Shown: positions 2,062 through 31,925 of the stretch, piece after piece | Layout of the letters: the number at the start of each line of letters is the position of its first letter | Position numbering within the stretch: position 1 is the first letter of the stretch | NCBI GenBank assembly: GCA_964347155.1 | Contig: CAYFXR010000149.1 | Span: 1 to 33,332 of the forward strand | Reading direction: 5' to 3' | Source of the DNA: an uncultured Nitrospiraceae bacterium | Lineage (GTDB): Bacteria; Nitrospirota; Thermodesulfovibrionia; UBA6902 | DNA: 33,332 bases | Translations under genes and position numbers: made by a program | The notes under the pieces: generated by a model | Databases searched by the model: none | Seen by the model: only the letters and a program-made list of their open reading frames with translations | What the model was told of the DNA's origin: nothing

Positions 2062-2243
2062 TTAACCCAAATAATGCAGACATTGCTCAATAAATTATTT
2101 AACTCGATAAATTTATTATTAAATTGTGCATATGGCTTTGAATAAACGTATTTACACTCGATCAATTAATATTGCGTTTAAGGTATCGAAAAATAATTTC
2201 TTTCACAAAGCCTGCATTATGTGAAATGCATTTTTGGGGTTAA
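2062..2243 (+). mobile_element. MITE-like element, sub-family 1, full copy (copy A)
   Basis: TIRs: TTAACCCAAATAATGCAGAC ... GCCTGCATTATGTGAAATGCATTTTTGGGGTTAA. Copies at 31743-31925 (+) and 11813-11995 (-) are >90% identical. Confidence 0.7.
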
Positions 2244-2366
2244 CGTTTTTTTGATAAAAAGATAAACAATGTATAACAAGACAATAAAAGAGTATCTATA
2301 AATTATGAAGAATACTGGCAGGGAATATAAGGAAGGAATTAATTAGTAATGGCTGGTAAGATTCGG

Positions 2367-3014
2367 TTACTTTTTACTTTTTATCTTTTCAAGCAGATCG
2401 CTTGCAAAGTCTTTATCTGATTTTTTTAAGACATTATATTCTTTTCTTGCTAAGTCTAATGACTTTTTACTTAATTCGACATAGGCAACACCAAGGTGAT
2501 AGCGGGCTTCTGCAAATGTGGGCTTAATCTTTACAGCTTTTTTATATGATTCAATAGCTTTTTCATATCTTTCCAGCTCGCTGTATATGTTACCGAGCGT
2601 AAAATACGCATTTGCATCTCTCGGTTTAAGTGTAACGGCTTTTTGAAGTGCTTTAATTGCTTCATCATTCTTGCCAAGCATGGAAGAGAGCATACCAAGT
2701 GAGTAGAGAGCATCTCCATATTTGGGATTTATTTTAACGGCGTTCTTATACGCATCATGTGCTTCTGAATACCTGTGAATGTTGAAGTATGCGTTACCAA
2801 GATGATGGTATGCCTCGGCATAATCGGGTTTTAGTTCAATGGCATGTTGAAAAGCGTCGATAGCTTCTGAATATTCTGTATTTTCACTGTTCTGGACACC
2901 GATATCAAAAAACGTCTCAGCAGAGGGTTCCTGGGCATAGAGGTCCATTGACAGAAAAGCAATTGACAGTGCTACAAGCGTTATTACTTTATAATAGTTC
3001 GATTTGAAAATCAT
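2367..3014 (-). CDS. TPR-repeat protein with N-terminal signal peptide
   Basis: Repeated 34-aa TPR units (AxxYxxLGxxYxxxxxYxxAxxxYxKA). The hydrophobic signal begins at the Met at 3014 (the ORF track extends it to 3062). Confidence 0.8.
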   Translation of the reverse strand: MIFKSNYYKVITLVALSIAFLSMDLYAQEPSAETFFDIGVQNSENTEYSEAIDAFQHAIELKPDYAEAYHHLGNAYFNIHRYSEAHDAYKNAVKINPKYGDALYSLGMLSSMLGKNDEAIKALQKAVTLKPRDANAYFTLGNIYSELERYEKAIESYKKAVKIKPTFAEARYHLGVAYVELSKKSLDLARKEYNVLKKSDKDFASDLLEKIKSKK

Positions 3015-3087
3015 AACTACCCATTTTATCAAAAAATATTTTTTTTTGTAAATAGGTGACAAAATGATAACAGGATGAAATCAATTT

Positions 3088-4092: not shown

Positions 4093-4176
4093 ATGCTGTT
4101 TTATTAACAACGCTTCATGTAAATTCGTTTTAACAGTTCCAGCCGTTCCAAATGTTCCAACGGATGGAACTGCTCA

Positions 4177-4201
4177 AACGGTTCAAACTGTTTGAACCGT
4201 T
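4177..4201. promoter_or_regulatory. Perfect 12-1-12 palindrome AACGGTTCAAAC-T-GTTTGAACCGTT between the moeA-like stop and moaA start
   Basis: Seen directly. Overlaps the stop codon of the upstream minus-strand gene. Related GTTCCAACGG/GGAAC half-sites lie at 4141-4170. Confidence 0.45.
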
Positions 4202-6601: not shown

Positions 6602-6712
6602 AGTATCGTTATAACATATTTGTCACAACGGTGTAAAGAAAAAAATGTCAAAATGCAATTATCGGAGGCATAGATAACTTCGAAATATTTAAAAATGCAA
6701 CATGATTACCAG

Positions 6713-6781
6713 ATGCCATTTTGCAATCGATAAAAATTTTTTACATACATTTATACTGTTATGATTGCAAAATGGCATGTT
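6713..6781. promoter_or_regulatory. 15-bp inverted repeat TGCCATTTTGCAATC ...37 nt... GATTGCAAAATGGCA upstream of the modE-like gene
   Basis: Seen directly. Located in the 285-bp gap between the fmdE-like and modE-like genes. Confidence 0.4.
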
Positions 6782-6886
6782 TAAAGGAGTTGCTTTTAAA
6801 GCTTTTTTCAGGTATCTATGCCTGTTATTTGCATAGGGAAATGACGTAAAAGAACAAAGAAACTGCGGAAATGTGGGACTGCTGTA

Positions 6887-7489: not shown

Positions 7490-7611
7490 CTCCTATTTTT
7501 ATCCAACCTGCAAATTTTCTTTTACTTATTTCAATGTATAGTACCTGCTTTGCTTCAAAAAAGCCAATCCAAATCCACCTTCAATTTTCTATGATTTTGT
7601 ACCTACTTCCT

Positions 7612-7825
7612 TTACCCAGAAAATGCATTTTAAATAATGCAGGCTTTGGAAGAAAATTTATTTATCGATACATTAGACGCAATTCCAACCAATCTAAGGT
7701 GAATATTTTTATTCCAAGCTATATGCATGATTTAATAGTAAATCCATCCCGTAAAATATTTACTATTTACGGGATAAATCGAATTAAATAAATTTTATTA
7801 CAATGTCTGCATTATTTAAGTTTAA
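7612..7825 (-). mobile_element. MITE-like element, sub-family 2 (copy B), with extra internal hairpin CCCGTAAA..TTTACGGG
   Basis: Reverse complement aligns along its length with 10164-10343. Termini TTACCCAGAAAATGCATTTTAAATAATGCAGG and CAATGTCTGCATTAT. Confidence 0.65.
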
Positions 7826-7899: not shown

Positions 7900-8754
7900 A
7901 TGTTTAAACTCAGTATATTCCTTATAGCATTTCTAATACTTTTCATTAGTACAAATATATCATATGCTAAGGAAAAGGAGATTATCTTTGCCATTTCGCC
8001 AATGGCATCTCCTGTTTCCACTCTCTCTTATTACAATGATTTTATAAGATATCTTTCTAAAAAGACAGGTCTAATGATCATTCCTAAACAGAGGAGAACC
8101 TACGCTGAGATTAACTCCCTTTTAAAGAAGGGCGAAGCAGAGTTCGCCTATACGTGCACCGGGGCTTACATAAGAGGCAATTTTGACTTCGGACTTGAAC
8201 TCCTTGCCGTGCCAGTCATAAATGGCAAGACAAGCTATCATTCATACATAATTGTAAACAAAGAAAGCAAGATCGAGATCTTCTCCGGGCTTCGAGGAAG
8301 GGTCTTTGCCTTTACAGACCCGCTCTCATTGACAGGGAGACTGTACATCATACATCTCCTTGATACAATGGGTCTCATACCGGAGGAATTTTTTGAAAAG
8401 ACTTTTTACACATCAAGTCATGAAAAATCAATACAATCTGTGGCAAATGGACTTGCAGATGGGGCGGCAGTTGACAGTCTTATTTTTGACGATATGAAGA
8501 GAAAACATGCCCCGTCCACAAGCAATGTAAGAATTATAAAGATTTCACCGCCTTACGGCATACCTCCGGTTGTGGCGTCTCCTGTTGCGGAAAAATCAAC
8601 CAAGCAGCTTATATTAAAGACCCTTATTAAGATGGCAGAGGATACAACCGGAAGGGAGATTCTCCAGGGAATCCATATTGAAAAATTTATTATTCCTGAC
8701 CCTGCTATTTATAAGACTGCGGCAGAAGTGAGGGAGGCAACATTTCTACGGTGA
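7900..8754 (+). CDS. PhnD/SsuA-family periplasmic solute-binding protein (sensor-associated, AioX/ArxX-like)
   Basis: Signal peptide. PhnD-like fold motifs. Single mature Cys in FAYTCTGAY. A strong SD (AGAGGGGAA) precedes the ATG. Overlaps the kinase start (GTGA). Confidence 0.8.
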   Translation: MFKLSIFLIAFLILFISTNISYAKEKEIIFAISPMASPVSTLSYYNDFIRYLSKKTGLMIIPKQRRTYAEINSLLKKGEAEFAYTCTGAYIRGNFDFGLELLAVPVINGKTSYHSYIIVNKESKIEIFSGLRGRVFAFTDPLSLTGRLYIIHLLDTMGLIPEEFFEKTFYTSSHEKSIQSVANGLADGAAVDSLIFDDMKRKHAPSTSNVRIIKISPPYGIPPVVASPVAEKSTKQLILKTLIKMAEDTTGREILQGIHIEKFIIPDPAIYKTAAEVREATFLR

Positions 8755-10175
8755 GATTAGGAAAAATCTACAACAGCATAGCATTTCGCATCTCTATCTC
8801 CATTGCCGTTGTAGTGGCTGCTACAACGATGGGTGTGAGTTGGCTGCTGCTGAGAGAAGAAAGAAAAACACTGGAACTTGAACTTCGTAGCAAGGGAATG
8901 TACCTTGCAAATACAATGTCCCACCATATCATCGAACCATTCCTTTATGAGGAACGGCATGAAATATTCTCTCTTCTCAAAGCATCTATGATTGACGAAG
9001 AGAGTCTTGTGGTGCATGCCGAGGTCTATGACAAGAATAGAGAATTGATTGTTACAGCAGACAAGGATGAAAAGTGGCAAACAATAAAGTTTCAGCCGCT
9101 TAACTTTGAAGATTCACTAGAGGATATTATTATCGAGGAAGACAATATCTTGCCAATTTATCATATATCTTTACCTCTTAAAGTAGAAGCACTTGGAACT
9201 ATTGGATTTATCAGGCTGTGCATAACAAAAGAATACCTTTATAAGACCCTTGGAAATGTAAAACAGAAGCTTTATCTTCTGTCAGCAGCCGTTATCTTTA
9301 TCGGCATAATGCTGGGACTCTGGATGGCAAGAAAAATTTTAAGACCAATACTTATTCTTAATAAAGGGGTAAAAATGGTTGGTGAAGGAGGGCCGGGTGT
9401 TGAGATACCTGTAGTTGGAGAGGGCGAGATAAAAGAGCTGGCACTTTCTTTTAACAGAATGTCCGAGAAATTGAAAGAACAGATTGAGGTGATAAAGACC
9501 GCTCAGGAAAATCTTATAAGGACAGAGAAACTCTATGCCGTTGGAGAATTCTCTGCAGGAATTGCACATGAAATAAAGAACCCTCTTACATCCATCAAAA
9601 TGCTTATGCAGACTACACGATACAAAAAAAAGGCACTGTCCGACAGAGATTTTGAGATTATTGAGGGAGAGATAAACAGGATAGATCGTATCGTAAAAGA
9701 GTTTCTTGCTTTTGCAAGACCTGAAAAGATTGAAAAGACAGATATAAGTATAAATGATGTCCTTGAAGAAGTTATTACATTGACCGAGCCAAAGATGAAA
9801 CAAACTACCATACAACTTGAACAGATGTTTTCTCCCAACCTGCCGATGATCAAGGGAAATCTTGATGGTCTCAAACAGGTTTTTCTCAATATTGTTCTTA
9901 ATGCCTTACAAGCAATGAATGGTGGTGGCACACTGGGTATAGAGACATCAAAGAATAAAGATATGCTGTCAGTTGTAATAAGAGACACCGGCGCTGGGAT
10001 TCCAAAACAGGATTTAAAAAGAATTTTTGACCCTTTCTTTACAACAAAAGAGGAAGGAACCGGTATGGGACTGGCTCTAACGTATAAAATAGTGAATGAC
10101 CACTCTGGCAAGATTGATATAGATTCGACTACATCCGGTACAACGGTAAAAGTGGATTTGCCCTTACCCGAATAA
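8751..10175 (+). CDS. Sensor histidine kinase (2 TM, periplasmic domain, HAMP, HisKA, HATPase_c)
   Basis: HEIKNPLTSI H-box and N/G1/G2 boxes (DTGAGIP, GTGMGLAL). GTG start overlaps the upstream stop. Confidence 0.85.
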   Translation: MRLGKIYNSIAFRISISIAVVVAATTMGVSWLLLREERKTLELELRSKGMYLANTMSHHIIEPFLYEERHEIFSLLKASMIDEESLVVHAEVYDKNRELIVTADKDEKWQTIKFQPLNFEDSLEDIIIEEDNILPIYHISLPLKVEALGTIGFIRLCITKEYLYKTLGNVKQKLYLLSAAVIFIGIMLGLWMARKILRPILILNKGVKMVGEGGPGVEIPVVGEGEIKELALSFNRMSEKLKEQIEVIKTAQENLIRTEKLYAVGEFSAGIAHEIKNPLTSIKMLMQTTRYKKKALSDRDFEIIEGEINRIDRIVKEFLAFARPEKIEKTDISINDVLEEVITLTEPKMKQTTIQLEQMFSPNLPMIKGNLDGLKQVFLNIVLNALQAMNGGGTLGIETSKNKDMLSVVIRDTGAGIPKQDLKRIFDPFFTTKEEGTGMGLALTYKIVNDHSGKIDIDSTTSGTTVKVDLPLPE

Positions 10176-10343
10176 TGCAGACATTGTAATAAAATTTATT
10201 TAATTCGATGGATTTATTATTAAATTATGCATATAGCTTGGAACAAACATATTCACCTTTGATTGGCTGGAATTGCGTCAAAGGTATCGAGAAATAGATT
10301 TTCTTCCAACGCCTGCATTATGTGAAATGCATTTTTTGGGTTT
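10164..10343 (+). mobile_element. MITE-like element, sub-family 2 (copy C), wedged exactly between kinase and sigma54-regulator genes
   Basis: Left TIR TTACCCGAATAATGCAGAC encodes the kinase's last codons L-P-E-stop. Right end ...AAATGCATTTTTTGGGTTT immediately precedes ATG 10344. Confidence 0.7.
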
Positions 10344-11750
10344 ATGAATACACTTCTTATTATAGATGACGAAAAAGCAGTGAGATACTCCTTTAAAAGG
10401 ATGTTTGAAGATGAATACAGGGTTTTAACTGCTGAGGACGGTGTATCGGCTCTGAATATTCTCGATACCAGCTATATTGGTGTTGACGTCATTTTCCTTG
10501 ATGTCAGAATGCCTGGCATGGGGGGGATAGAGGTGCTTAAAAAGATTAAGGAGATAACAAAGAACATTCCTGTTGTAGTAATGACGGCATTTGGCGATTC
10601 TGATACTGCTATTGAAGCTATGAAAGAAGGGGCGTTTGATTACCTTACAAAGCCTTTAGAGGGTAACCAGCTAAAAGATGTTATTGAAAAGGCGCTTGCA
10701 TCGGCACGGCTTCAGCAAGATGCTTCCTGTTGTGGAACGATAGAAGAACTCTCGGATAAGGAAGAGACAATTGTGGGAAAAACTCAGTCAATTCTTGATG
10801 TTTGTAAGATGATCGGTCAGGTTGCAAACACAGATGTGCCTGTGCTCGTAACAGGAGAAAGTGGTGTAGGAAAGGAGTTAGTGGCACGGGCAATATACAA
10901 CCACGGTAGTAGAAAAGGTAGACCTTTTATGGCTGTTAATTGTGCTGCACTTCTTGAGGGTGTGGTAGAGAACGAATTATTTGGTTCAGAGAAAGGGGCA
11001 TTCACGGGCGCTGACAAGAGGAGAATAGGAAGGTTCGAACAGTGTGACGGGGGTACTATCTTCCTTGATGAGATCGGAGATATGAGTATTCCAACTCAAG
11101 CTAAATTACTCAGGGTACTCCAGGATGGTAGCTTCGAGCGTATCGGAAGCAATGAGACAATAAAGACAAATGTGCGTATCATTGCTGCCAGTAATAAAAG
11201 TCTCCACGACGAGGTAAGGAACGGCAGGTTCAGAGAAGACCTGTTTCACAGACTCAATGTTTTTTCCATACACATTCCTGCGCTCAGAGAAAGAATGGAA
11301 GATATTCCGTTGCTCTCAGATTACTTCCTCTCAAGGGCGGTCAGGGATACGGATAAAAAGATCACGGGATTTTCACATGACGTAATTAAACGTTTTATGT
11401 CATATAACTGGCCGGGCAATGTGAGAGAGCTTGAAAATACCATAAAACGGGCTGTGGTAATTACTACTGGAGAGGTTCTTGGTGTGAATGATGTTATTTT
11501 AAATGCTGAGTCATGTACAAAAGAGTTTCAAGAGCTTTCTGTGGTAATTGACGGTTTATTTGAAAGGACGATTAACACGCAAGCCCCTTCAGACAGTTAT
11601 CACTCTATCCTCTCACGTGTGGAAAAATGTCTTATTGAAAAGGCACTAAATGTAACAAAGGGGAATCAGGTACAGGCATCTGCACTACTCGGTATTACAA
11701 GAGTCACATTAAGAAAAAAGATGCAAGAGTTCAAAATCCCGTCTGTATAG
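10344..11750 (+). CDS. Sigma-54-dependent response regulator (REC + AAA+ sigma54-activator + Fis-type HTH), NtrC/AioR-like
   Basis: Receiver Asp (FLDVRMPGMGG), Walker A GESGVGKE, GAFTGA motif, C-terminal HTH. Confidence 0.9.
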   Translation: MNTLLIIDDEKAVRYSFKRMFEDEYRVLTAEDGVSALNILDTSYIGVDVIFLDVRMPGMGGIEVLKKIKEITKNIPVVVMTAFGDSDTAIEAMKEGAFDYLTKPLEGNQLKDVIEKALASARLQQDASCCGTIEELSDKEETIVGKTQSILDVCKMIGQVANTDVPVLVTGESGVGKELVARAIYNHGSRKGRPFMAVNCAALLEGVVENELFGSEKGAFTGADKRRIGRFEQCDGGTIFLDEIGDMSIPTQAKLLRVLQDGSFERIGSNETIKTNVRIIAASNKSLHDEVRNGRFREDLFHRLNVFSIHIPALRERMEDIPLLSDYFLSRAVRDTDKKITGFSHDVIKRFMSYNWPGNVRELENTIKRAVVITTGEVLGVNDVILNAESCTKEFQELSVVIDGLFERTINTQAPSDSYHSILSRVEKCLIEKALNVTKGNQVQASALLGITRVTLRKKMQEFKIPSV

Positions 11751-11812: not shown

Positions 11813-11995
11813 TTTAAACCAAAAAATGCATTTCACATAATGCAGGCTTTGTGAAAGAAATTATTTTTCGATACCATAAACGCAATATTAATTGATCGAA
11901 TGTAAATACTTTTATTCGAAGCCATATGCACAATGTAATAATAAATGTATCGAGTTAAATAATTTATTGAGCAATGTCTGCATTATGTAGGTTAA
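11813..11995 (-). mobile_element. MITE-like element, sub-family 1 (copy D), inverted relative to copy C, so the two flank the regulator gene
   Basis: Reverse complement ~90% identical to 2062-2243. Confidence 0.7.
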
Positions 11996-12021
11996 ATAAC
12001 GAATTCCCTTTATCTTTATTT

Positions 12022-12037
12022 TGGCATGTTATTTGCT
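12022..12037 (+). promoter_or_regulatory. Sigma-54 (-24/-12) promoter TGGCATGTTATTTGCT upstream of CheY-like gene
   Basis: GG and GC spaced as in the TGGCAC-N5-TTGCA consensus. Nearly identical to the second site at 12746. Confidence 0.6.
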
Positions 12038-19889: not shown

Positions 19890-22373
19890 ATGGCTAATGT
19901 AACACGACGAAATTTCATACAGCTGGGCATCGCAAGCGGAGCCCTCCTTGCTGCCGGAGAAGGTATTGTATTCCCTGCTTTAGCTGGTGCAGTAAAGTTA
20001 GATAAAGGCGGCAAGGATTTCAACTTTAAGACGGATGCAGAGAGAACAGCCATTCCAACTGCATGCTGGTCATGTTTTACCAGGTGTGCGGCTATCGGTT
20101 TTGTGGAGGATGGCAAGCTTGTTAAAATCGAATCCAATCCTAATTCTATCAGAACCGAGGGCAAAATGTGTGCAAAAGGACAGTCAGGTCCCAACGATAT
20201 CTATTTCCCGGACAGGATACTCTATCCAATGAAACGTGCAGGCAAACGCGGTGAGGGTAAATGGAAGAGGATTTCCTGGGATGAGGCTATTACAGAATTA
20301 TCAGGACGGCTAAAAAAGCTCCGTGACGACGGTAATCCAGAGAAATTCATGTTCCACTATGGCATGATGGAGGCAAGTTCTAGAAAACTGATGAAAAACG
20401 TTTTCCTTGATACGTACGGCACAGGGACGATAGGAAACCATACCTCTACAAGCACGAGCGCAAAAAAGACAGCGCAGGAACTGACGTGGGGCGAGTTCTT
20501 CGATAACTGGGACTTTGACAATACCAAGTTTGTCATGAATTTTGGAAGTAACGTGCAGGAGGCCCATATCAATCATGTACCTTGCTCAAACAGGCTGATA
20601 AAGGCAAGGGTTGAAAACGGTGTAAAGAGTGTTACCTTTGATGTGAGATTTTCAAATACCGCGGCAAAGTCAACTGAATGGATACCAATCAAACCGGGAA
20701 CCGATGGAGCAGTTGCCCTCGCTATGTGTAATGTGATAATGCAAAACGATCTTTATGACAAGGATTTCTTTACATTCATCAGGGCTAAGGAGAATGTCAA
20801 TCTCTCTATAGACGAAAAGGTATCTGCTTTGAAATCTCACCTCTCCCGATATACACCTCAATGGGCGGAAAAAGTAAGCGGTGTGAGCGCCGCTAAGATC
20901 GAATCTCTCGCAAAAGAATTCGCAAAGACAAAGCCTGCAGTAGTAATCAGCTTTAGAGGGGCAATAGCCCATTACAACGGTGTCGAAAACGAACGTGCTA
21001 TCCAGATGCTTGCTGCAATAACAGGCAACATTGATAACCCAGGCGGAAGATGCAGAGGTGTGCGAGCCAGATGGGAATATCCAAAGGGGCCGAAAGATAA
21101 ACCGGAGACAAAGAGACTGGATATAATTGACGGCAAAGGCGCAGCCCTACCGACTCACAACATGGGACACCAGGTATTTAAGATGATCAAGGAAGGCGGT
21201 AATGGAAGACCTGAAGTATACATGTGGTACTGCTATAACCCTGTGTATGTGAACGGCGAAAGCACGGAGAATGCAGAGGTTCTGAAAGACGAAAAGATGA
21301 TCCCCTTTACAGTGGCTTCAACTATTGTCTATGACGAATCGAGCAAACTCGCTGATTTGATCCTGCCTGATGCCACCTATCTCGAAAGATGGGACTGGGA
21401 AGACAATGTCTCCCCCACTCAGATTCCAGAATACTATATCCGACAGCCCCTGGTAAAGCCGCTTGGGGAGGCCAGGGATTTTGGAGACGTGGTGATTGAG
21501 ATTGCAGAGAAAATGGGCATGCCTTTAGGTGTTGGCAGTTCTAAAGAGGAGTTTGTAAGGAAATCCTGCGAGATGACTCCCGGTGTAAAGGAGGCAGGCG
21601 GCTTTGAGTACATGAAGAAGCAGGGTGTGTGGCATGACCCGAATGAAAAACCTCGTTATCATCTATACAGGGAAGAAGTAAAGACTGACGGTGCAATTCT
21701 TGATGAAGCAACGGGCGTATACTGGAGAGGAAAAGCAGGTGAAGATTACACCAAGACCAGAAATGCATACAGACAGTATGTTGGCCAGAAAATAGGAGAC
21801 AAGGTCTACAGAGGCTTTTATCCTGACAAGCTCAATAAGACTGGTTACTTTGAGCTTTACTCCGCGCTTATGAAAGAAAAGGGCTTTGACCCTCTTCCAA
21901 CCTGGATGCCGATACCTGAGCATGAGAACATGAAGCCTGATGAGCTGATTCTTGCTACCTATAAAGTCGCCATTCATATCCTCTCAAGGAGTTCACACCG
22001 TAAATGGCTAAGCGAGGTTTACCATGACAATCCAGGATGGATCAATCCTAAAACCGCAGCTACACGGGGTATCAATGATGGAGACAAAATCAAGGTTAAA
22101 TCAAGAGTCGGAGAGATTATAACCAGAGCACGTGTTACCGAAAAGGTTATTCCCGGAGTCATAGCCATCTCCTTTCATGCAGGACGCGAGGAAAGCGGAA
22201 GATACGGATCAGGCAATAAGTCACCGGAGGCACATGATAATGACCCGGATCTCCAGAACAAGTTCTGGGATACATATGGTGTAAATTCAAACAGGATTAT
22301 CCCCAACTCTTCTGACCCAATAAGTGGCCAGCTGTGCTGTATGGATACGGTTGTAACAGTGACAAAAGCATAG
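19890..22373 (+). CDS. TAT-exported molybdopterin oxidoreductase catalytic subunit, Psr/Phs/Ttr/Arr clade of the DMSO-reductase family
   Basis: TRRNFIQLG TAT signal. N-terminal CxxCxxxC...C [4Fe-4S] motif (CWSCFTRC...MCAKG). RISWDEAI and FGSNVQEAH family motifs. 827 aa. SD AAGGAGGA. Confidence 0.85.
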   Translation: MANVTRRNFIQLGIASGALLAAGEGIVFPALAGAVKLDKGGKDFNFKTDAERTAIPTACWSCFTRCAAIGFVEDGKLVKIESNPNSIRTEGKMCAKGQSGPNDIYFPDRILYPMKRAGKRGEGKWKRISWDEAITELSGRLKKLRDDGNPEKFMFHYGMMEASSRKLMKNVFLDTYGTGTIGNHTSTSTSAKKTAQELTWGEFFDNWDFDNTKFVMNFGSNVQEAHINHVPCSNRLIKARVENGVKSVTFDVRFSNTAAKSTEWIPIKPGTDGAVALAMCNVIMQNDLYDKDFFTFIRAKENVNLSIDEKVSALKSHLSRYTPQWAEKVSGVSAAKIESLAKEFAKTKPAVVISFRGAIAHYNGVENERAIQMLAAITGNIDNPGGRCRGVRARWEYPKGPKDKPETKRLDIIDGKGAALPTHNMGHQVFKMIKEGGNGRPEVYMWYCYNPVYVNGESTENAEVLKDEKMIPFTVASTIVYDESSKLADLILPDATYLERWDWEDNVSPTQIPEYYIRQPLVKPLGEARDFGDVVIEIAEKMGMPLGVGSSKEEFVRKSCEMTPGVKEAGGFEYMKKQGVWHDPNEKPRYHLYREEVKTDGAILDEATGVYWRGKAGEDYTKTRNAYRQYVGQKIGDKVYRGFYPDKLNKTGYFELYSALMKEKGFDPLPTWMPIPEHENMKPDELILATYKVAIHILSRSSHRKWLSEVYHDNPGWINPKTAATRGINDGDKIKVKSRVGEIITRARVTEKVIPGVIAISFHAGREESGRYGSGNKSPEAHDNDPDLQNKFWDTYGVNSNRIIPNSSDPISGQLCCMDTVVTVTKA

Positions 22374-22462: not shown

Positions 22463-22746
22463 TTAACTCAAATAATGCAGAGTCGATTCGACCTCAAAAA
22501 TACCCGTCATACCTCCCCCTTTGGAAAAGGGGGATTTAGGGGGATTTTATAATGATAACGTCCTATAAATCCCCCCTCTCCCCGTATAGGGGCGTTGCAT
22601 CAACGGCGAAAAGCCGCGTTGCGGCCTCGCCGCTTTACGCGGGGCTTTACGCCCCACTTTAATAAAGTGGGGGAAATATATAATTAATATTGCGTTTAAG
22701 GTATCGTCCCGACACATCGGGACATTATTTAAAATGCATTTTTGGG
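22463..22746 (+). mobile_element. MITE-like element (copy E) carrying a ~185-bp GC-rich multi-hairpin cassette
   Basis: Family termini TTAACTCAAATAATGCAGAG ... TTAAGGTATCG...AAAATGCATTTTTGGGCT. Internal hairpins: CCCCCTTTGGAAAAGGGGG; GGGGGATTTTATAATGATAACGTCCTATAAATCCCCC; CCCCACTTTAATAAAGTGGGGG. Confidence 0.65.
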
Positions 22747-22754
22747 CTGAAGAA

Positions 22755-24211: not shown

Positions 24212-24350
24212 TTAATCCAAACAATACATTTCAGATAATGCAGGCTTTGTGTCCCGATGCATCGGGACGATACCTTGGAAATTCGTAATCCATGTCCGTA
24301 GTACGTGTCCGTAAAAAACGGATAACGGACACGTTTCACGATAATATAAG
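24212..24350 (-). repeat. Partial MITE-like copy (copy F) plus hairpin CGTGTCCGT..ACGGACACG
   Basis: TTAATCCAAACAATACATTTCAGATAATGCAGGC terminus. Internal GGTATCGTCCCGAtgCATCGGGAC is shared with copy E. Confidence 0.55.
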
Positions 24351-24509
24351 AAATACAGTTAAATTTTGTATTTTAAGAGCAAAAATAATGCCAATATATA
24401 AAATTAAAAAATAACTTTATTTTTAAGTAGTTGCATGTGATCAATTATGTTCTTAATGTCTAAAAAATATCCAGGATGTATATTCTCTATACAAAAAAAT
24501 AGAATGTCA

Positions 24510-26175: not shown

Positions 26176-26363
26176 AATCATAATAGGTGATAGGGGACGC
26201 GTAACGGGTAACGAGTTAAAGTATTTATTTAACCTGTTACTCGTTACTTATGACAAATTGTTTTTCTAATTCCCTGCAACTGGTTGAATTTATTGACAAT
26301 TATTGGCTATTGACAAGCAGAATATTTGATTTTATCCACTTGTTCTGGCATGCTAAATATATG

Positions 26364-26765
26364 AGGATAATGGGGCTTGATGTTGGTGATAAATACATAG
26401 GCGTAGCGGTGAGTGATGGCCTTGGGCTCACAGCTCAGGGGATAGACACTATAAAAAGGAATAACTATATATTAGCGTTAAAAGAGATTATCAAGGAATA
26501 TCATGTAGAATCAATTGTAGTTGGACTCCCCAAAATGCTTAACGGCACCATTGGTATTCAGGGTGAAAAAGTTATTCAATTTACAGATGAATTAAAATCA
26601 TCCATTCCCTTACCAGTCTCCTTCTGGGACGAAAGATTGAGTACGGTGAGCGCTGAAAGGGTTTTATTAGAGGCTGATGTGTCCAGGAAGAAAAGAAAGG
26701 GTCTTCGCGACAAGGTCTCAGCAGTAGTTATCCTTCAGAATTATCTCGATAGTGTAAAACAATGA
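26364..26765 (+). CDS. ruvX: Putative pre-16S rRNA nuclease / Holliday-junction resolvase-like YqgF (RuvX)
   Basis: [20 protein letters not shown]-terminus. The ORF-track upstream extension (26250-26363) is not conserved. Confidence 0.8.
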
Positions 26766-27799
26766 AAAAAATATTTTTTCTTATCATACAGATAGTTTCT
26801 GTGGTGACCGGTTTTGCCATCTTGGTAAGTCTTGCCTTTTTTATTCATATCTCAACACCTGTTTCGTACAAGGAAATCTGGAAAGAGATTGAAATTCCAG
26901 AAGGAGTAAGTTTTAAGAAAGGAATTGAGATTTTAGAAGATAATGGTATTATAAAAAGTAAAATTACCTTTCTCTTACTGGGCAGAATAACCAATACCGA
27001 TAGGCAATTAAAAGCTGGATTCTATCATCTCAGTGCCTCTATGATCCCGGTGCAGATCTTTAAAGATCTAATTGCGGGCAGGACAGTTCAATACAGTATT
27101 ACAATCCCTGAGGGTTCAACTCTGGAAGATATCAGAAAGAAATTTAAAGGTACAGGTCTTATTGACAAAGAATCTTGGCAGCTCGTTTACGATAAGGATT
27201 TTCTTGATTCTCTTGAAGTACATGCTCCAAGTCTGGAAGGTTATGCATATCCTGATACCTATAATTTTCCAAAGGGAACAGAGCCAAGAACTATCTTTAA
27301 AATTATGGTTCAGAGGCTCATGGAGAATTTTAAAGAACCCTTAAGAAGAAGGGCTATAGAACTCGGTATGACTGAAAACGAGGTCTTAACTCTTGCTTCG
27401 ATTATTGAAAAAGAAGCGATATATAATTTTGAACGGCCCTTGATATCAGCTGTTTACCACAATCGTTTAAAGAAAAAAATGAGACTCCAGGCTGATCCTA
27501 CAGTGCTCTATGGAGTAAAAGAGAGATGGAAGCGGATTCGATACAGGGATTTAAGGAGGGTCACACCATATAACACCTATATAATTAAAGGGTTACCACC
27601 GGGTCCGATTGCATCTTCCAGTATAATGTCCATAAAGGCCGCACTTTATCCTGCAAAAGTTAATTATTTATATTTTGTCTCGATGAATAACGGTAAACAT
27701 CATTTTTCCTTCACCGGGGAAGAGCATGAAAAGGCGGTAGACGTCTATCAGCGCAACAGCTATAATAAAACCCAAAATGGCAAAAAAAAAGTCAACTAG
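26762..27799 (+). CDS. mltG: Endolytic murein transglycosylase MltG (YceG family)
   Basis: N-terminal TM. YceG-like domain (ITIPEG, GLPPGPI). ATGA overlap with ruvX. Confidence 0.8.
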
Positions 27800-28829
27800 A
27801 CAGATAAGACTCGGAGGTGTAAAAATCGGGGGAAGCGCACCTGTGGTCGTCCAGTCTATGACAAAAACCGACACCCGTAATGTATTTTCCACTGTAGCTC
27901 AAATAAAAAGGCTACAGGCTGCTGGCTGCGAAATAATAAGAGTTGCAGTCTTGAATGCAGAAGCTGCTCAGGCCATAAGATCCATAAAGAAAAAGATAAA
28001 AATTCCCCTTATTGCCGATGTCCATTTTGATCACAGACTTGCTCTTGAGTCAGTAGCAAATGGAGCGGATGGATTAAGGATAAATCCTGGGAATATCGGC
28101 AGCAAACTGAAAATAAAAGAAGTTGTAAATGCTGCAAAAGATAAAGGAGTTCCAATAAGGATAGGGGTTAATGCAGGATCTCTGGAAAAAGAGCTGTTGA
28201 GAAAATATAAACATCCATCTGCAAAGGCACTTGTTGAAAGTGCAGGAAGGCATATAAAAATCCTTGAAGACATGAAATTTACCGCCATTAAAGTCTCTCT
28301 TAAGGCATCCGATGTTTTGAAAACGATTGAGGCTTACCGCCTTTTTGCTGAGAAATTCAGATACCCTCTTCATATCGGTATTTCAGAGGCAGGTCCTGTT
28401 TTCTCAGGAACCGTAAAGAGTGCTGTTGGTCTAGGAATACTTCTCTCAGAAGGTATTGGAGACACAATAAGAGTGTCATTAACTGCAGAACCTGTTGAGG
28501 AAGTAAAGGTTGCTTATGAGATTTTGAAATGTTTGCATTTGAGGCAAAAAGGTCCGGAGCTGATTTCCTGCCCTACGTGCGGTCGATGTCAAATAGATAT
28601 AAGGGGAATTGTAGATAGTGTTGAAAAGAAACTTGTTGATATAAAAAAACCCGTTAAGGTAGCTGTCATGGGATGCGTGGTAAACGGCCCGGGAGAAGCA
28701 CGGGAAGCTGACATAGGAATTGCAGGTGGAAAGGGCATGGGTATCCTTTTTAAACAAGGCAAAGTCGTGAAGACTCTAAAAGAACGAGAACTTTTCAGTA
28801 CGTTAATAAGAGAGATCAAGAAGCTGTAA
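27777..28829 (+). CDS. ispG: 4-hydroxy-3-methylbut-2-enyl-diphosphate synthase IspG (GcpE)
   Basis: IRLGGVKIGGSAPVVVQSMT N-terminus. C-terminal CPTCGRC [4Fe-4S] motif and GCVVNGPGE. Confidence 0.9.
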   Translation: MAKKKSTRQIRLGGVKIGGSAPVVVQSMTKTDTRNVFSTVAQIKRLQAAGCEIIRVAVLNAEAAQAIRSIKKKIKIPLIADVHFDHRLALESVANGADGLRINPGNIGSKLKIKEVVNAAKDKGVPIRIGVNAGSLEKELLRKYKHPSAKALVESAGRHIKILEDMKFTAIKVSLKASDVLKTIEAYRLFAEKFRYPLHIGISEAGPVFSGTVKSAVGLGILLSEGIGDTIRVSLTAEPVEEVKVAYEILKCLHLRQKGPELISCPTCGRCQIDIRGIVDSVEKKLVDIKKPVKVAVMGCVVNGPGEAREADIGIAGGKGMGILFKQGKVVKTLKERELFSTLIREIKKL

Positions 28830-28898
28830 AAATATAAATTGCGCCGCAGCAGAACCGCGAGGTATGAAAACAAAAAAATATGTATCTTTAATTAAATG

Positions 28899-29231
28899 CT
28901 ATAATTGGGCACAATAACGAACGCTTTCATTTTCATGGTCATTATATCTGCTTTTATATTTAGTAAATGTCCTGACCACTTTTCCTTGTTGGAACGTATA
29001 TTCTTTAAGTGCCTCTTTCTTATGTTTTTTCGCATTTTCTATTTTATGTTCATATCCCTTTAAACTTTCGATTAAACAATTGAGTATATTTGTTGCAATA
29101 TCAATAATCTGATTTTCCGAGAAACCTTTTTTTCGCAAAATCCGATAAAAAACCTTTGCAACAACCCTTGCTCCCTTTTTTGTATCCTTTGCTGCAATGT
29201 TTATTACTTTGTCAATGTTCGAATAATTCAT
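28899..29231 (-). CDS. Small hypothetical protein co-transcribed with dehydratase/activator fusion
   Basis: SD GGGGGTGA 6 nt upstream of ATG 29231. 4-nt gap from the upstream gene stop. No recognisable domain. Confidence 0.45.
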   Translation of the reverse strand: MNYSNIDKVINIAAKDTKKGARVVAKVFYRILRKKGFSENQIIDIATNILNCLIESLKGYEHKIENAKKHKKEALKEYTFQQGKVVRTFTKYKSRYNDHENESVRYCAQL

Positions 29232-29235
29232 AACA

Positions 29236-31428
29236 TCACCCCCTGTACATTTTATTTTCGTTTGCCGCAATAATTGCTGCTCCCAATGCCCCGATAATTT
29301 GTGGATTATCGGGAACTAAAATTTTCTCCCCAACACCTCTTTCGAGAGCACGAACTACACCACCATTAAGTGCTACTCCTCCTGACATAGCGATTGGTGT
29401 AATAATCTTTGGAGATAACTGCCTCAATAAAGTAATAGTCCTGGTCACAACCATTTCATGAATACCCCTTACGATATCATCTGCTGAAGAGCCTCTGGCA
29501 ATTAAGCTGACGACTTCTGACTCTGCGAAGACAGTGCACATTCTGCTCAGCGTTAAAGACTTTTTTGCATTAGCGTCATAGTCGCTTAAATCTTCCAATC
29601 CAATTCCTAACGCATTTGCCATTGCTGCAAGGAACTTGCCGGTTCCAGCAGCGCATGCATCATTCATCCGAAAGCGCGCTTCGTCACTCAAAATAACTTT
29701 TGTATCCTGTCCGCCAATCTCAACGATTGTCTTGACTCCGGGAAATAGATATTTCATCCCTTCATTATGGCAAGTGATTTCTGTTATTACTTTATGGGCA
29801 AAAGATACATTTTCGCGACCTACGCCTGTAGCAACAACGCTTTTACAACTTCCTATTTTTAATCCACCCGCTGTACTAAGAGCCTCTTTGCTCGCCCTTT
29901 CTATAGCTTTTCTATTGTCAGAGCCAGTAGGAATAACACTGGATCCCAATATATTTCCTTTTCCGTTTTGACTAAATACCACAACCTTGATTGAAGAAGA
30001 TCCTACATCAATTCCCATGTAGCATTCTTTATCAGCAGCCCAAGGGAGTATGTTTAATTTCCTTTTATCAGGTGTATCATAACTATAAATGGATTGTCTG
30101 GCTTTTAAACCTTCCAGAAAGGCATGAAGTCTTGTTCTCACCAGTTCGCTGCGTTCATCGACCAGACAATCACTGCTCAGATTCAAAATAGGCAATCCTT
30201 TTTTTTGATTTAAAAACTCGGAAACTACAGGAAAGGTATTTTTGGTCCATTCACAATTTTCATGAGAGAAATGAATTGCTCCATCTACCTTAAACTTTTC
30301 TGCAAGATTATCAAGGTCTTTTGCACGCTTTAATGACGTTCTATATTGTCCACCACCCGAAAGAATTTCCCTGGCAAGGCTCTTATAGGGATTTGAAGGG
30401 TCCACTTCACTTCGCGAAGGATAATTTACTTCCTCGAAAGCAATCACAGCGTTATGCTCTTCCAGTATGTCAAATATTTTATTGTCGTAATAAGGTCTAA
30501 GATGGAGCCAGAGCAGCCTCAATTTTTCTTTGGGAAGATCATTATTATTTCTTTCTACTCTCGCTTTGAGTTCTGAATAGAGAAGACTATAGATTTCCAC
30601 AATCTCTTCAGAACCCCAGGTTTGTGACAGAACCGTAGCATAATCGAGGGCTTCTCTACTTGGCATTGGGGAAGGCACGGTCTGCCGCAGCTCCTCAATC
30701 TTTTTCCAGTACCAGGCTGCCTGATTTGAGAACTCAATTACCTTTGGAAGTCTTTCTTTTTCTACTTCACTTACACTTATTCCAGTCTTTCTGCATAGTA
30801 GAGCCGTTAGACGTCTAAACTGGTTAGCAACATACTCAACAGACTCTGCACTGCTATCCAACGGTATATTCAGATAGAAATAATCACTTCCATAAAATCT
30901 ACTGACATCATGGAGAATGGAACCTATTCCATTACAGAAGCTGGGAGACCCTATAACGAGATCCGGTGTTGGCATTATTCCCTCATGTACTCCTCCAATT
31001 GTAGTTTTTAAGAAGGAGCATAATTTAGGTTCATATTGATTTTCTTCAGCTTTCTGAATAGCATTTCTTATTGCCGGTTGACACTGGGCAACTGCGGAAC
31101 AGGACATTTCAGGGGTAAAAGGCAGGGCACCTGCAGCATAAAGAATTTCTGATGGTACCAGGAAACTTCTCCAGGCAACTACAGTATTTGGATTGTAGGC
31201 ACTCAGTAGCTGTCTGGCAATCAAGGCCGTCCGTTTGTCAGTTGATTTTAACAGTCTGCTTTTTTTCTCTCTCTGCTCTTTACCTCCATATTTTAAAGCT
31301 TTCAAAAATTTCTTCTTTTGGTCTAATCGGGTATGACTTCTTCTGTTGCTGAGAAGTTCTTTTTTGTTCTTTGAGCAGAAGTTGAAAGTGTTTTGACTAC
31401 TTAATGTGCTTATTGTTTCCATATACAT
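29236..31428 (-). CDS. Fusion protein: N-terminal 2-hydroxyacyl-CoA dehydratase (HgdB/HadC-like) domain + C-terminal BadF/BadG/BcrA/BcrD (HgdC-type) activator ATPase
   Basis: C-terminal YMGIDVGSSSIKVVVF, GGQDTKVI, DACAAGTGKFL and GGVALNG ASKHA/activase motifs. N-terminal ~440 aa is HgdB-like. Confidence 0.7.
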   Translation of the reverse strand: MYMETISTLSSQNTFNFCSKNKKELLSNRRSHTRLDQKKKFLKALKYGGKEQREKKSRLLKSTDKRTALIARQLLSAYNPNTVVAWRSFLVPSEILYAAGALPFTPEMSCSAVAQCQPAIRNAIQKAEENQYEPKLCSFLKTTIGGVHEGIMPTPDLVIGSPSFCNGIGSILHDVSRFYGSDYFYLNIPLDSSAESVEYVANQFRRLTALLCRKTGISVSEVEKERLPKVIEFSNQAAWYWKKIEELRQTVPSPMPSREALDYATVLSQTWGSEEIVEIYSLLYSELKARVERNNNDLPKEKLRLLWLHLRPYYDNKIFDILEEHNAVIAFEEVNYPSRSEVDPSNPYKSLAREILSGGGQYRTSLKRAKDLDNLAEKFKVDGAIHFSHENCEWTKNTFPVVSEFLNQKKGLPILNLSSDCLVDERSELVRTRLHAFLEGLKARQSIYSYDTPDKRKLNILPWAADKECYMGIDVGSSSIKVVVFSQNGKGNILGSSVIPTGSDNRKAIERASKEALSTAGGLKIGSCKSVVATGVGRENVSFAHKVITEITCHNEGMKYLFPGVKTIVEIGGQDTKVILSDEARFRMNDACAAGTGKFLAAMANALGIGLEDLSDYDANAKKSLTLSRMCTVFAESEVVSLIARGSSADDIVRGIHEMVVTRTITLLRQLSPKIITPIAMSGGVALNGGVVRALERGVGEKILVPDNPQIIGALGAAIIAANENKMYRG

Positions 31429-31742
31429 TTTTCTTTTTTCCTTTACGTTTTGTTATTTGCTGTTTCCCTAATAGACGTTACAATTCGGAAAATCTTGCAT
31501 AAAACATTTTTAAAATTTTGTATTAAAGTTTTCACATGATTCATAATACCTATAAACAGAAATGCAATATTTCCTTTTTTCAGCTAATATTGCTTTATTT
31601 ATCGGGACTTCCTTTTTATTTCTCCCTATATATTTAAGAATCTTTTCTATTCGTGCCCTTCATCTAAAATTAGACGGACATTGTATCGTTATGTTTATTC
31701 ATAGAACAAATCTAATGCCAGATTAATGCAAACTTATGAGTA

Positions 31743-31925
31743 TTAACCCCAGATAATGCAGGCATTGCTCAATAAATTATTTAACTCGATAAATTTATTA
31801 TTAAATTGTGCATATGGCTTTGAATAAAAGTATTCAAACTCGATCAATTAATATTGCGTTTAAGGTATCGAAAAATAATTTATTTCACAAAGCCTGCACT
31901 ATTTTAAATGCATTTTTTGGGTTAA
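31743..31925 (+). mobile_element. MITE-like element, sub-family 1 (copy G)
   Basis: ~95% identical to 2062-2243. TIRs TTAACCCCAGATAATGCAGGC ... GCCTGCACTATTTTAAATGCATTTTTTGGGTTAA. Confidence 0.7.

Follow-up and report, generated by a model that had tools for sequence, protein, structure and literature searches.

A dispersed family of probable MITEs with TTAA-like target duplications in uncultured Nitrospirota

The 33,332-nt contig analysed here (CAYFXR010000149.1, from an uncultured Nitrospiraceae bacterium; hereafter the window) carries copies of a short AT-rich repeat in its intergenic DNA, raising the question of whether these belong to a mobile element or are kept by the host for a function and, if mobile, of what type of enzyme moves them. 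A sequence-only reading had proposed such a repeat family, and our results bear this out. There are six full copies (about 180-290 nt; 182-288), which can be aligned end to end, and four fragments. The 23-nt right-end motif CTGCAYTATNNNAAATGCATTTT has seven matches in the window with up to three mismatches, versus 0.02 expected by chance, and ATAATGCAGRC has 15 with up to one mismatch, versus 1.3 expected. The copies and fragments are listed below; the refined coordinates of the full copies include the flanking 4-mers.

2062-2243, plus strand: copy A, 182 nt, flanks TTAA / TTAA, nhmmer 183 bits; an ArsC-like gene (start 1917, minus strand) on one side, the end of a TPR gene on the other
7611-7824, minus strand: copy B, 214 nt, sub-family B/C, flanks TAAA / TAAA on the element strand; between a divergent FmdE-like gene and a PhnD/AioX-like sensor gene
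7747-7778, minus strand: nested hairpin of copy B, 32 nt, TTTATCCCGTAAATAGTAAATATTTTACGGGA on the element strand
10163-10344, plus strand: copy C, 182 nt, sub-family B/C, flanks CTTA / TTTA; precisely at the kinase/regulator stop/start junction
11814-11995, minus strand: copy D, 182 nt, flanks TTAA / TTTA; between the regulator stop (11750) and a sigma-54-type -24/-12 motif at 12022-12037
22463-22750, plus strand: copy E, 288 nt, flanks TTAA / CTGA (degenerate); between a Mo-oxidoreductase gene and its TorD-like chaperone gene
31743-31925, plus strand: copy G, 183 nt, flanks TTAA / TTAA; in an 850-nt spacer between a divergent HGD-D/BcrAD gene and panC
214-240, minus strand: solo left terminus, AAAACGCCTGCATTATTTGGGTTAA on the plus strand, E=0.25; adjoins unrelated small repeats
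303-337, minus strand: left-arm fragment, …TTTTTGAGCAATGCCTGCATAAT, E=0.0065
24212-24276, minus strand: right-terminal fragment, model positions 118-181, E=1.3e-6, in which a small GC hairpin has been substituted; a sigma-54-type motif (24378-24393, minus strand) lies on one side, the likely ATG (24201) of a multihaem cytochrome gene on the other
32185-32207, plus strand: solo right-terminus remnant, GAGATGCATTTTTTGGGTTAA, 68 nt upstream of panC; its sequence recurs identically in locus L146

The boundaries first proposed for copies A and G stand, whereas B moves by one, C and D take the limits given above and E ends at 22750 rather than 22746. Partial copies claimed at 1-240, 24212-24350 and 32146-32208 are real but smaller, the element-derived parts being ~214-240, 24212-24276 and ~32185-32207; the rest of 1-240, outside the left terminus, consists of other small repeats. 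The claimed GC content of ~28% fits five full copies (26-31%, compared with 40% for the whole window) but not copy E (46%), the difference being due to nested GC-rich inserts. What copy E has kept is the left tip, the right terminus and some of the core; nested GC-rich hairpin repeats have replaced or enlarged its interior (about 22483-22680). Pairwise identity among window copies is 72-93%, and their alignment upholds both the division into sub-families A/D/G and B/C and the extra hairpin in B. The copies contain no credible ORF, overlapping ORFs being either spurious or without a Pfam match. All are intergenic, as had been stated, with the qualification that the kinase gene takes its last two codons and its stop from copy C, and that copy E extends over the chaperone ORF's first in-frame ATG. 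The window copies cluster near sensor, kinase and regulator genes.

Apart from the duplicated 4-bp target, the basic unit is about 174 nt long, with 5'-CCC...GGG-3' tips and the consensus TTAA|CCCAAATAATGCAG ... TTTTTNGGG|TTAA. A conserved 9-nt inverted-repeat core, ATAATGCAG / CTGCATTAT, which is paired in 52-56 of 56 aligned copies, lies inside imperfect arms of ~40 nt (left, CCCAAATAATGCAGACATTG..TTTATTTAACTCGAT; right, GGTATCGAAAAATAA..CTGCATTAT). The longer right terminus noted in the sequence-only reading is confirmed: the right arm has ~13 extra nt, the palindrome AAATGCATTT, between core and tip, making the two ends of the element unequal, with a core-to-tip spacing of about 5 nt at one end and about 20 nt at the other. 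An alignment of 56 distinct copies, drawn from many assemblies, has conserved ends and a variable middle; as the metagenome copies were picked by the right-end motif, the lack of variation in that motif is in part a product of how they were chosen. The central ~80 nt is sub-family-specific and accepts nested insertions, and in mini-elements of 47-58 nt the central part is wholly lost.

A perfect palindrome within the right end, together with compensated double changes in the inverted-repeat core of two copies, might be taken to indicate a regulatory or structural repeat selected by the host, i.e. a promoter/operator module of a sigma-54 regulon, a structured RNA or an ERIC/REP-like mRNA element, in which copies are kept for function and the resemblance to a mobile element is secondary. 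We consider this very unlikely. On folding, which had been suggested as a check, copy A somewhat outperforms shuffled sequences (z = -2.7 with DNA parameters, -2.0 with RNA), but the RNAalifold consensus of 56 copies has just 7 pairs (-3.8 kcal/mol; covariation term 0.08). The arms also have conserved mismatches (GACATTG opposite CAACATC), which is in keeping with a sequence conserved because a protein binds it, not because the arms pair. The Rfam scan of the window returned no match at the gathering score and nothing meaningful at E<=1, the best hit on copy A being to a nematode snoRNA (E=0.14), so that the known RNA family which the sequence-only reading had named as evidence against itself was not found; with the near-zero covariation, this led us to reject a known structured RNA. 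Sigma-54 -24/-12 motifs (<=2 mismatches) are absent from inside the copies, good ones lying outside at 12022, 12746 and 24378, and none of the orthologous regulator-region contigs examined contains the repeat, leading to rejection of a sigma-54 promoter/enhancer module. Sigma-70-like matches number 45, compared with 40 +/- 7.5 in shuffles, and none is conserved.

A host-selected repeat would, moreover, leave the 4-bp direct duplications flanking the copies unaccounted for. Conservation ends abruptly at the flanking 4-mer, further out from which the sequence is unrelated between copies, and the 4-mers form a direct repeat with the consensus TTAA. TTAA is present on both sides in 19 of 43 cleanly bounded copies and on one side only in 11; a further seven have matching non-TTAA 4-mers as direct repeats (TAAA, TTTA x2, TCAA and TTGA x3), against a permutation mean of 1.24 (P about 1e-5), and in none are non-TTAA 4-mers in inverted arrangement. 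These comparisons show that insertion duplicates a 4-bp TTAA-like target, which decides between the two duplications previously suggested, TTAA or TA. The 4-mers at site C (CTTA and TTTA) differ at the first base, and a 3-bp duplication (TWA), with element ends CCC...GGGT, retains a small probability.

The unequal 4-mers of site C (left CTTA, right TTTA) and the one-sided TTAA in 11/43 copies would also suit a different type of element, i.e. a non-autonomous single-strand (IS200/IS605-type, PATE-like) or other non-DDE derivative, which would enter on the 3' side of a TTAA-like tetranucleotide and have TTAA as its own end, the apparent duplication then being target plus element end. The right end could, as read from its sequence, form a small hairpin (TGCATT-N6-AATGCA). 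Such an origin is nevertheless most improbable. IS200/IS605 ends have no long inverted arms, and both of their end hairpins are in the same orientation; the ~40-nt inverted terminal arms here are foreign to them. The co-variation of non-TTAA 4-mers as direct repeats (7 versus 1.2 expected) implies that the right 4-mer is not part of the element, and the Pfam-scanned window ORFs include no TnpA, TnpB or RAYT-like gene. REP/BIME units are palindromes of 20-40 nt that have a GTAG head and are accompanied by a RAYT gene, and PATEs have sub-terminal hairpins and neither inverted repeats nor duplication. The inverted arms, the co-varying 4-bp duplication and the lack of a TnpA/RAYT-like gene thus rule against both IS200/IS605 PATEs and REP/BIME.

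Further evidence for insertion comes from sites that lack the element. Six contigs from relatives contain the orthologous sensor/kinase/regulator region (the regulator protein being 74-84% identical, and 4/6 also having the Mo-enzyme genes), and nhmmer at E<=10 detected no element copy in any of them; conservation at orthologous positions, which would have counted against mobility and for selection by the host, was thus not observed. At exactly the place that copy C takes in the window, L012, L013 and L014 have overlapping kinase and regulator genes, the empty sites reading ...CCTTTATGAATAC in L012 and ...CCATTATTATGAATAC in L013. The L012 junction is ...GAGATACCTTTATGAATAC and that of the window ...GATTTGCC-CTTA-(CCCGAATAATGCAG...TTTTTTGGG)-TTTA-TGAATAC, with copy C in parentheses; removal of the element and one 4-mer gives back the overlapping stop/start TTATGA of kinase and regulator, which is the ancestral state. 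Copy C supplies the final two codons and stop of the kinase (CCC GAA TAA), and the last A of its right repeat is the A of the regulator ATG; it has split a translationally coupled pair of genes with both reading frames kept. The earlier proposal that insertions remodelled this locus is accordingly upheld at copy C by the empty-site junction, with B, D and E being consistent with it.

The repeat is not confined to the window. When 185,579 species genomes were scanned for the core motif, one species matched, the groundwater Nitrospirae MAG JACQXG01; its 10 copies are spread over 10 contigs and share 72-82% identity with those in the window. The MAG copies adjoin unrelated housekeeping genes (by eye lpxA/fabZ, yidC, pfk and pyrF), contrary to what host selection around regulators would predict. 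A right-end scan of metagenomes matched at least 119 contigs, with about 60 full copies among the matches listed, giving a range of at least two species plus more than 100 metagenome contigs, at non-homologous intergenic sites. The dispersed non-autonomous element envisaged in the sequence-only reading is supported by both the JACQXG01 and the metagenome copies. The hairpin variant of copy B is present at another locus, L058 (91% identical), a 261-nt variant occurs three times in JACQXG01, and copies 93-96% identical to A and D are found at other loci; variants, too, have been copied.

The orientation of the copies relative to genes requires comment. Between tandem genes, 27 are co-directional and 7 anti-directional (p=0.0008), and the median distance to start codons is 76 nt for right ends versus 144 nt for left ends (p=0.03). 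A bias as strong as 27:7 is not what a neutral cut-and-paste element would be expected to show. Both figures, like the gathering of window copies around sensor, kinase and regulator genes, would be in keeping with selection by the host, and the bias would also suit a single-strand element: elements of that sort (IS608/ISDra2), whose single-strand transposition follows the direction of replication, typically show a gene-orientation bias, and replication could in this way account for the one seen here.

On balance, we conclude that the repeats are very probably MITEs, i.e. non-autonomous DNA transposons, which have spread across the genome of one uncultured, Thermodesulfovibrionia-like member of the Nitrospirota and those of its relatives. 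This reading follows from the inverted repeats, the 4-bp duplication, the absence of coding capacity and the many dispersed non-homologous sites; the elements are non-coding and <500 bp, with terminal inverted repeats, target-site duplication, dispersed copies and empty orthologous sites, and it is from such comparative data that we infer mobility. Known bacterial MITEs in transcribed intergenic DNA include Correia/NEMIS (Neisseria), RUP (Streptococcus pneumoniae) and ERIC (enterobacteria), which often lie within operons and are co-transcribed; we know of no transposase identified for Correia elements. The present family resembles Correia, RUP and ERIC in being non-coding and 100-200 nt in length, with terminal inverted repeats, many intergenic copies in both orientations, sub-families and nested variants. 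It differs from them in having no sequence similarity, in its uncultured Nitrospirota host, and in its unequal ends and marked orientation bias; Correia and RUP, furthermore, have a TA duplication rather than the 4-bp TTAA-like one here. A search covering Rfam, a plasmid database and the literature, with ISfinder and Dfam outside its scope, gave no counterpart to the element.

With respect to the enzyme, a DDE-type transposase supplied in trans would bind the conserved ends and perform insertion. As previously stated, the window encodes no transposase, according to a Pfam scan of 28 ORFs. Among 136 right termini at about 150 loci, left-to-right distances are only 49-362 nt, revealing no autonomous partner, and neither a recurrent transposase-like ORF in the about 150 related loci nor an IS1380-type gene in these or the window was found. 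A phmmer search of 1,250 ORFs from all loci, using approximate piggyBac and ISEcp1 queries, also gave no match.

The IS1380 family has 4-5-bp duplications and ends starting with CC; to our knowledge, it has not been characterised by a strict preference for TTAA. The ends of Trichoplusia ni piggyBac are unequal, with inner-repeat spacers of 3 bp versus 31 bp. PiggyBac has CCC/GGG tips and a TTAA duplication from which it occasionally departs, TAAA and TCAA being among the variants it tolerates; its terminal repeats start 5'-CCC, and IS1380 is the prokaryotic outgroup of piggyBac transposases (PMC10813416). Our element has two traits of the piggyBac/IS1380 type, a TTAA duplication and terminal repeats that start with CCC (CC in IS1380); these, with the GGG at the opposite tip, lead us to infer that the transposase most likely comes from the piggyBac/IS1380 superfamily. 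The element has in common with piggyBac the 4-bp TTAA duplication with variants, the 5'-CCC ends and the inequality of the ends; it differs in that the piggyBac superfamily is eukaryotic, in that the ends have no sequence similarity past CCC, and in that no such transposase was found at the loci searched. Likeness to IS1380 (e.g. ISEcp1) in duplication length and CC ends is a lead.

It is possible, although doubtful, that a true MITE is being moved by a different family, i.e. an atypical IS630 (ISHsp2-like), IS5 or IS701-type transposase with YTAR targets. The YTAR target class of IS5/IS701 accommodates TTAA, and the lack of a piggyBac/IS1380-like protein in the approximate phmmer searches fits. 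The IS630 family otherwise needs a TA target. Of the seven non-TTAA duplications that agree on both sides, however, five (TTGA x3, TCAA, TAAA) lack the central TA of IS630/Tc1-mariner and YTAR targets, the dinucleotide beside the CCC tip is AA rather than TA, and the CCC/GGG tips with TAAA/TCAA variants match the description of piggyBac (PMC10813416). ISHsp2 itself, from the atypical IS630 family in Halomonas sp. ZM3, makes 4-bp TTAA direct repeats (PMC3606827), as does our element, but is an autonomous IS with a frameshifted transposase. We therefore rejected an IS630/Tc1-mariner MITE as such, there being AA/TT at the tips and no TA duplication, with ISHsp2 leaving room for a distant version.

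The MITE reading has implications for the host genes. Copy D lies between the regulator gene and a sigma-54 promoter motif, copy E parts the Mo-enzyme gene from the chaperone gene, and the right-end fragment 24212-24276 is presumed to lie inside the 5' leader of the cytochrome gene. The gene layout around C, D, E and the cytochrome fragment suggests that several copies are transcribed within host mRNAs. Host genes may have co-opted the right end as a leader just ahead of their start codons, one that is tolerated or useful to them; the orientation bias would then have an explanation. We tentatively propose that the family, with its TTAA duplication, CCC/GGG tips and unequal ends, is the footprint of a bacterial transposon with piggyBac-style chemistry and target choice, moved by a Nitrospirota transposase of the IS1380/piggyBac superfamily; if so, it would represent a prokaryotic counterpart of piggyBac.

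Repeat finding, multiple alignment and profile search concordantly recovered an AT-rich element from the window in six full copies, together with several fragments, at the following positions.

Full copies, fragments and copy-specific features of the element in the window
2062-2243, + strand, full copy A
7611-7824, - strand, full copy B
7747-7778, extra 32-nt hairpin of copy B
10163-10344, + strand, full copy C
11814-11995, - strand, full copy D
22463-22750, + strand, full copy E
31743-31925, + strand, full copy G
~214-240, element fragment
303-337, element fragment
24212-24276, element fragment
~32185-32207, element fragment

The window has 7 occurrences of the 23-nt right-end motif, against 0.02 expected from shuffles, and 15 of the 11-nt inverted-repeat core, against 1.3 expected; the repeat family is therefore real. 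The refined coordinates essentially match those that the sequence-only reading had given for the full copies, and the two sub-families (A/D/G and B/C), the additional hairpin of B and the longer right terminus are as it described them. The partial copies that it listed exist, although their extents are smaller than it proposed. Five of the full copies have a GC content of 26-31%, compared with 40% for the contig and 46% for E, the latter because GC-rich hairpin repeats are nested inside it.

An alignment of 56 distinct copies reveals high conservation of ~48 nt at the left end and ~70 nt at the right, with a central region of ~80 nt that exists in several unrelated versions and tolerates nested insertions. 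The ends read TTAA-CCCAAATAATGCAG ... CTGCATTAT-N3-AAATGCATTTTTNGGG-TTAA. The inverted-repeat core (ATAATGCAG/CTGCATTAT) is separated from the tip by ~5 nt on the left and ~20 nt on the right, the palindrome AAATGCATTT lies within the additional right-hand segment, and mismatches between the arms are themselves conserved (left GACATTG opposite right CAACATC). Because the metagenome copies were picked by their right-end motif, the invariance of that motif is partly by construction; the conserved left end is evidence that does not depend on this choice. RNAalifold on the 56 copies returns only a 7-pair core (-3.8 kcal/mol, covariation term 0.08); a structured RNA, which the sequence-only reading had named as an alternative to a mobile element, finds no support there, in single-sequence folds, or in Rfam at gathering and E-value thresholds. 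The pattern of conservation is that expected of protein-recognised transposon ends rather than of a selected RNA fold. In two copies from other loci (L008 2661-2842 and L001 636-818) the two halves of the 9-nt inverted repeat have changed in a matching, compensated manner (ATAGTGCAG/CTGCACTAT and ATAATACAG/CTGTATTAT), which may hint at arm-to-arm correction; six other single changes in the core are uncompensated. Natural mini-elements of 47-58 nt also occur among the metagenome loci, in which the left tip is fused straight to the right terminus with TTAA-like 4-mers on the flanks.

Mini-elements in metagenome loci
L044 ~1440-1490
L054 ~1235-1290
L144 2058-2115, providing the stop codon of a pseudopilin-like gene

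Among 43 copies with clean boundaries, the flanking 4-mer is TTAA on both sides in 19 and on one side in 11, and a further seven have an identical non-TTAA 4-mer on both sides as a direct repeat (TAAA; TTTA, twice; TCAA; TTGA, three times, the outer flanks all differing). None of the 43 has the flanking 4-mers in inverted arrangement. When right-hand 4-mers were shuffled among copies a mean of 1.24 were concordant, and ~1 in 100,000 shuffles reached 7. Base frequencies fall to background directly outside the 4-mer, with no extended target motif seen beyond it. The direct repeats and this sharp edge identify the 4-mers as duplicated target, so that the element itself begins with 5'-CCC and ends with GGG-3'; read from its flanks, the element is thus shown to insert at TTAA-like sites with duplication of 4 bp, which answers the proposal that target-site duplications be sought. 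A 3-bp duplication (TWA), with the element ending in GGGT, is strictly still compatible with the flanks and fits site C slightly better, but needs an unexplained ~90% T at the base left of the duplication, and the 4-bp duplication is the reading that we retain.

Regulator orthologues with 74-84% identity to that of the window are present in Nitrospirae/Thermodesulfovibrionia assemblies, including six contigs (L012-L017) that carry the orthologous sensor/kinase/regulator region, four of which reach into the Mo-enzyme genes. The element profile has no match in L012-L017, even at E<=10. The kinase and regulator genes of L012, L013 and L014 share the customary ATGA overlap, the empty junction in L012 being ...GTGGAGATACCTTTATGAATAC. 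The filled junction at site C of the window is ...GTGGATTTGCC-CTTA-[CCCGAATAATGCAG ... CATTTTTTGGG]-TTTA-TGAATAC, and removal of the element and one 4-mer gives ...CCCTTATGAATAC, restoring a kinase end (Pro-Leu-stop) and a regulator start (ATG-AAT-ACA) that are the same as in the relatives; as it stands, the window kinase ORF stops two codons later, within copy C. Conservation at orthologous positions had been named as the observation that would speak against mobility; these loci are empty, and the element is an insertion and not a conserved module. At site B the intergenic DNA is too diverged from the relatives to align, so that only the size difference is informative: the spacer between the FmdE and sensor genes is ~160 nt long in L015 and L016 but 410 nt in the window, a difference that an insertion of B would fit. 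Exact-protein look-ups for the aminotransferase and PanC gained no further empty sites, and the closest PanC contig (L146, from a sister assembly) begins downstream of copy G and so provides none for G. Positions 1-1100 of L146 match window 32036-33132 with 84% identity over 1,100 nt spanning panC, with the first ~260 nt, solo right-end remnant included, appearing identical by eye; this mosaic pattern is suggestive of recombination between strains.

The results support the interpretation of the family as a MITE made from the sequence alone, every structural feature of such elements that we tested being present: the element is shown to be non-coding, to have inverted repeats and to be absent from orthologous sites in relatives. 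It works likewise to Correia, RUP and ERIC, bacterial MITEs of transcribed intergenic DNA. A sigma-54 promoter or enhancer cassette was suspected because a sigma-54 regulator adjoins, but no -24/-12 motif lies within the copies, the orthologous loci are empty, and copies in another metagenome-assembled genome (MAG) have housekeeping neighbours. For an outward-facing sigma-70 promoter or a terminator within the ends, consensus matches are no commoner than in shuffles, with none conserved across sub-families, and a Xer/dif-like site has by eye only ATAATG in common with the ends. An IS630-type TA duplicator, REP/BIME, IS200/IS605-type elements, an Rfam RNA and a sigma-54 module each failed on a tested defining feature.

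A DDE-type transposase made elsewhere would bind the conserved ends and integrate the element. IS630-type and YTAR-type targets need a central TA, which five of the seven concordant variant duplications do not have. piggyBac has been described with TTAA duplication, occasional TAAA/TCAA-type variants and CCC-starting tips, and IS1380 as the prokaryotic family serving as outgroup of piggyBac transposases (PMC10813416), while ISHsp2 of the IS630 family is reported to make TTAA repeats (PMC3606827). A piggyBac/IS1380-like partner is ranked first given the TTAA duplication, the TAAA/TCAA-type variants, the CCC tips and the variants without central TA; as the searches yielded no autonomous element, it is offered as a hypothesis. 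The likeness to piggyBac lies in target and tips, and membership of the superfamily would need a transposase. In line with the sequence-only reading, none of the 28 window ORFs scanned with Pfam is a transposase, and the wider search that it suggested, across window, loci and plasmids, likewise found nothing. All-against-all clustering of 511 ORFs gave no recurrent transposase among the loci; for 136 right ends the distance to the left end was 49-362 nt and never in the 0.5-3 kb range; phmmer searches with piggyBac and ISEcp1 queries gave no match, nor did blastn against a plasmid database. Two loci that looked promising as partner-bearing, L144 and L030, contain pseudopilin and glycosidase genes.

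A motif spanning the conserved core and right end, scanned against 185,579 species-representative genomes, matched one species only, a Nitrospirae MAG from groundwater (JACQXG01) in which 10 copies are spread over 10 contigs. These are 72-82% identical to those of the window, with flanks that have nothing in common with it; judged by eye, the adjoining ORFs resemble lpxA/fabZ/lpxD, yidD/yidC/mnmE, phosphofructokinase, pyrF, a phosphate transporter and an ABC-F ATPase. In metagenomes the right-end motif occurs on at least 119 contigs, ~60 of which have full copies among the matches listed, the remaining listed contigs having fragments, solo right ends or mini-elements. Relatives of A, B and D at unrelated loci have 91-96% identity, and one (in L058) has the hairpin of B; the variants themselves have therefore propagated. 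A contig of the metagenome assembly GCA_012974985.1 has 98.7% identity to window 26259-29909. The element is thus dispersed across at least two species and many communities. Among viral contigs the right end had no matches, and the left tip had nine (eight copies of one phage sequence and one unrelated), none element-like. A search of the available literature library found no paper tying MITEs to Nitrospirae or Thermodesulfovibrio.

Other small repeats accompany the family. A second, unrelated MITE-like repeat of ~165 nt (window 6666-6834; inverted ends AGGCATAGATAACT... / ...AGGTATCTATGCCT) has 84-95% matches in metagenome loci L037, L040, L042, L073, L111 and L117, where in many cases it immediately adjoins a copy of the first family. 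A third kind comprises small GC-rich hairpins of CCCCC-loop-GGGGG type, e.g. CCCCCTTTGGAAAAGGGGG, which are nested in AT-rich element copies and take the place of the central part. Short repeats of GAACCGTTCAAAC / AACGGTTTAAAA type adjoin solo element ends, and one scores as terminator-like.

Positions of hairpin and short repeats
62-110 of the window, GC-rich hairpin repeats
22483-22680 of the window (inside copy E), GC-rich hairpin repeats
L045, L085 and L141, GC-rich hairpin repeats
180-220 and 4174-4195 of the window, GAACCGTTCAAAC / AACGGTTTAAAA-type repeats
L030 3590-3650 and L044, GAACCGTTCAAAC / AACGGTTTAAAA-type repeats

Pfam and NCBIfam annotation of the window identifies an ArsC-type gene, Mo-cofactor genes, a MOT1 molybdate transporter, a Band-7 gene, a 4Fe-4S/NrfD/multihaem-cytochrome set, a DMSO-reductase-family operon with a TorD-like chaperone, and housekeeping genes; the sensor, kinase and regulator genes of the sequence-only reading encode a PhnD/AioX-like periplasmic sensor, a histidine kinase and a sigma-54 response regulator. 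The Mo enzyme (19890-22373), a member of the DMSO-reductase family, falls below every NCBIfam equivalog cutoff (best score PhsA, 342 bits versus a cutoff of 694; ArrA, 175 versus 1600). Its pairing with the periplasmic sensor (7900-8754) is a conserved Nitrospirota respiratory module. Three sigma-54-type motifs, all outside element copies, are likely targets of the local sigma-54 regulator.

Sigma-54-type -24/-12 motifs in the window, each with 1 mismatch
12022-12037, + strand, TGGCATGTTATTTGCT, before the receiver-only gene
12746-12761, + strand, TGGCAGGTTATTTGCA, before the Band-7/Mo-enzyme operon
24378-24393, - strand, TGGCATTATTTTTGCT, before the divergent multihaem cytochrome gene

The receiver-domain-only response-regulator gene (12021-12503) is flanked by the sigma-54 regulator gene and the Band-7 gene and is missing at that position in the relatives L013, L015 and L016; its true start is probably further downstream, because the annotated TTG start overlaps the sigma-54 motif. 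Copy C parts the once-overlapping kinase/regulator pair, its right end abutting the regulator ATG, D lies between the regulator stop and the motif at 12022, and E comes between the Mo-enzyme gene and the gene of its chaperone; the 24212-24276 fragment falls in the interval from the motif at 24378-24393 to the probable cytochrome ATG (24201). From this layout, transcription must pass through C, E and that fragment, unless the genes are silent.

Across 63 independent insertion sites, from the window and loci L001-L145, 27 of the copies between tandem genes point the same way as those genes and 7 the other way (p=0.0008). The median distance to a gene start is 76 nt where the right end faces it versus 144 nt for the left end, with 18/39 right ends and 3/17 left ends within 45 nt (p=0.03). 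No asymmetric target motif or conserved promoter accounting for this bias was found; it could arise from selection on read-through transcripts or from a replication-strand effect.

The orientation bias and the closeness of right ends to start codons suggest that the element is not neutral for gene expression. Because copies split a translationally coupled kinase/regulator pair and adjoin putative sigma-54 promoters, the element is a concrete candidate for lineage-specific rewiring of a molybdoenzyme/cytochrome regulon. In many metagenomes, uncultured genomes of the Nitrospirota/Thermodesulfovibrionia type carry the family in abundance; its copies enlarge the intergenic DNA, extend ORFs or give them spurious starts and stops, and can fragment assemblies, and MAG annotation would benefit from a model of the family. 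A TTAA duplication combined with CCC/GGG tips marks piggyBac in eukaryotes; should the partner transposase turn out to be IS1380/piggyBac-like, a bacterial ancestry of the target choice of piggyBac could be tested directly.
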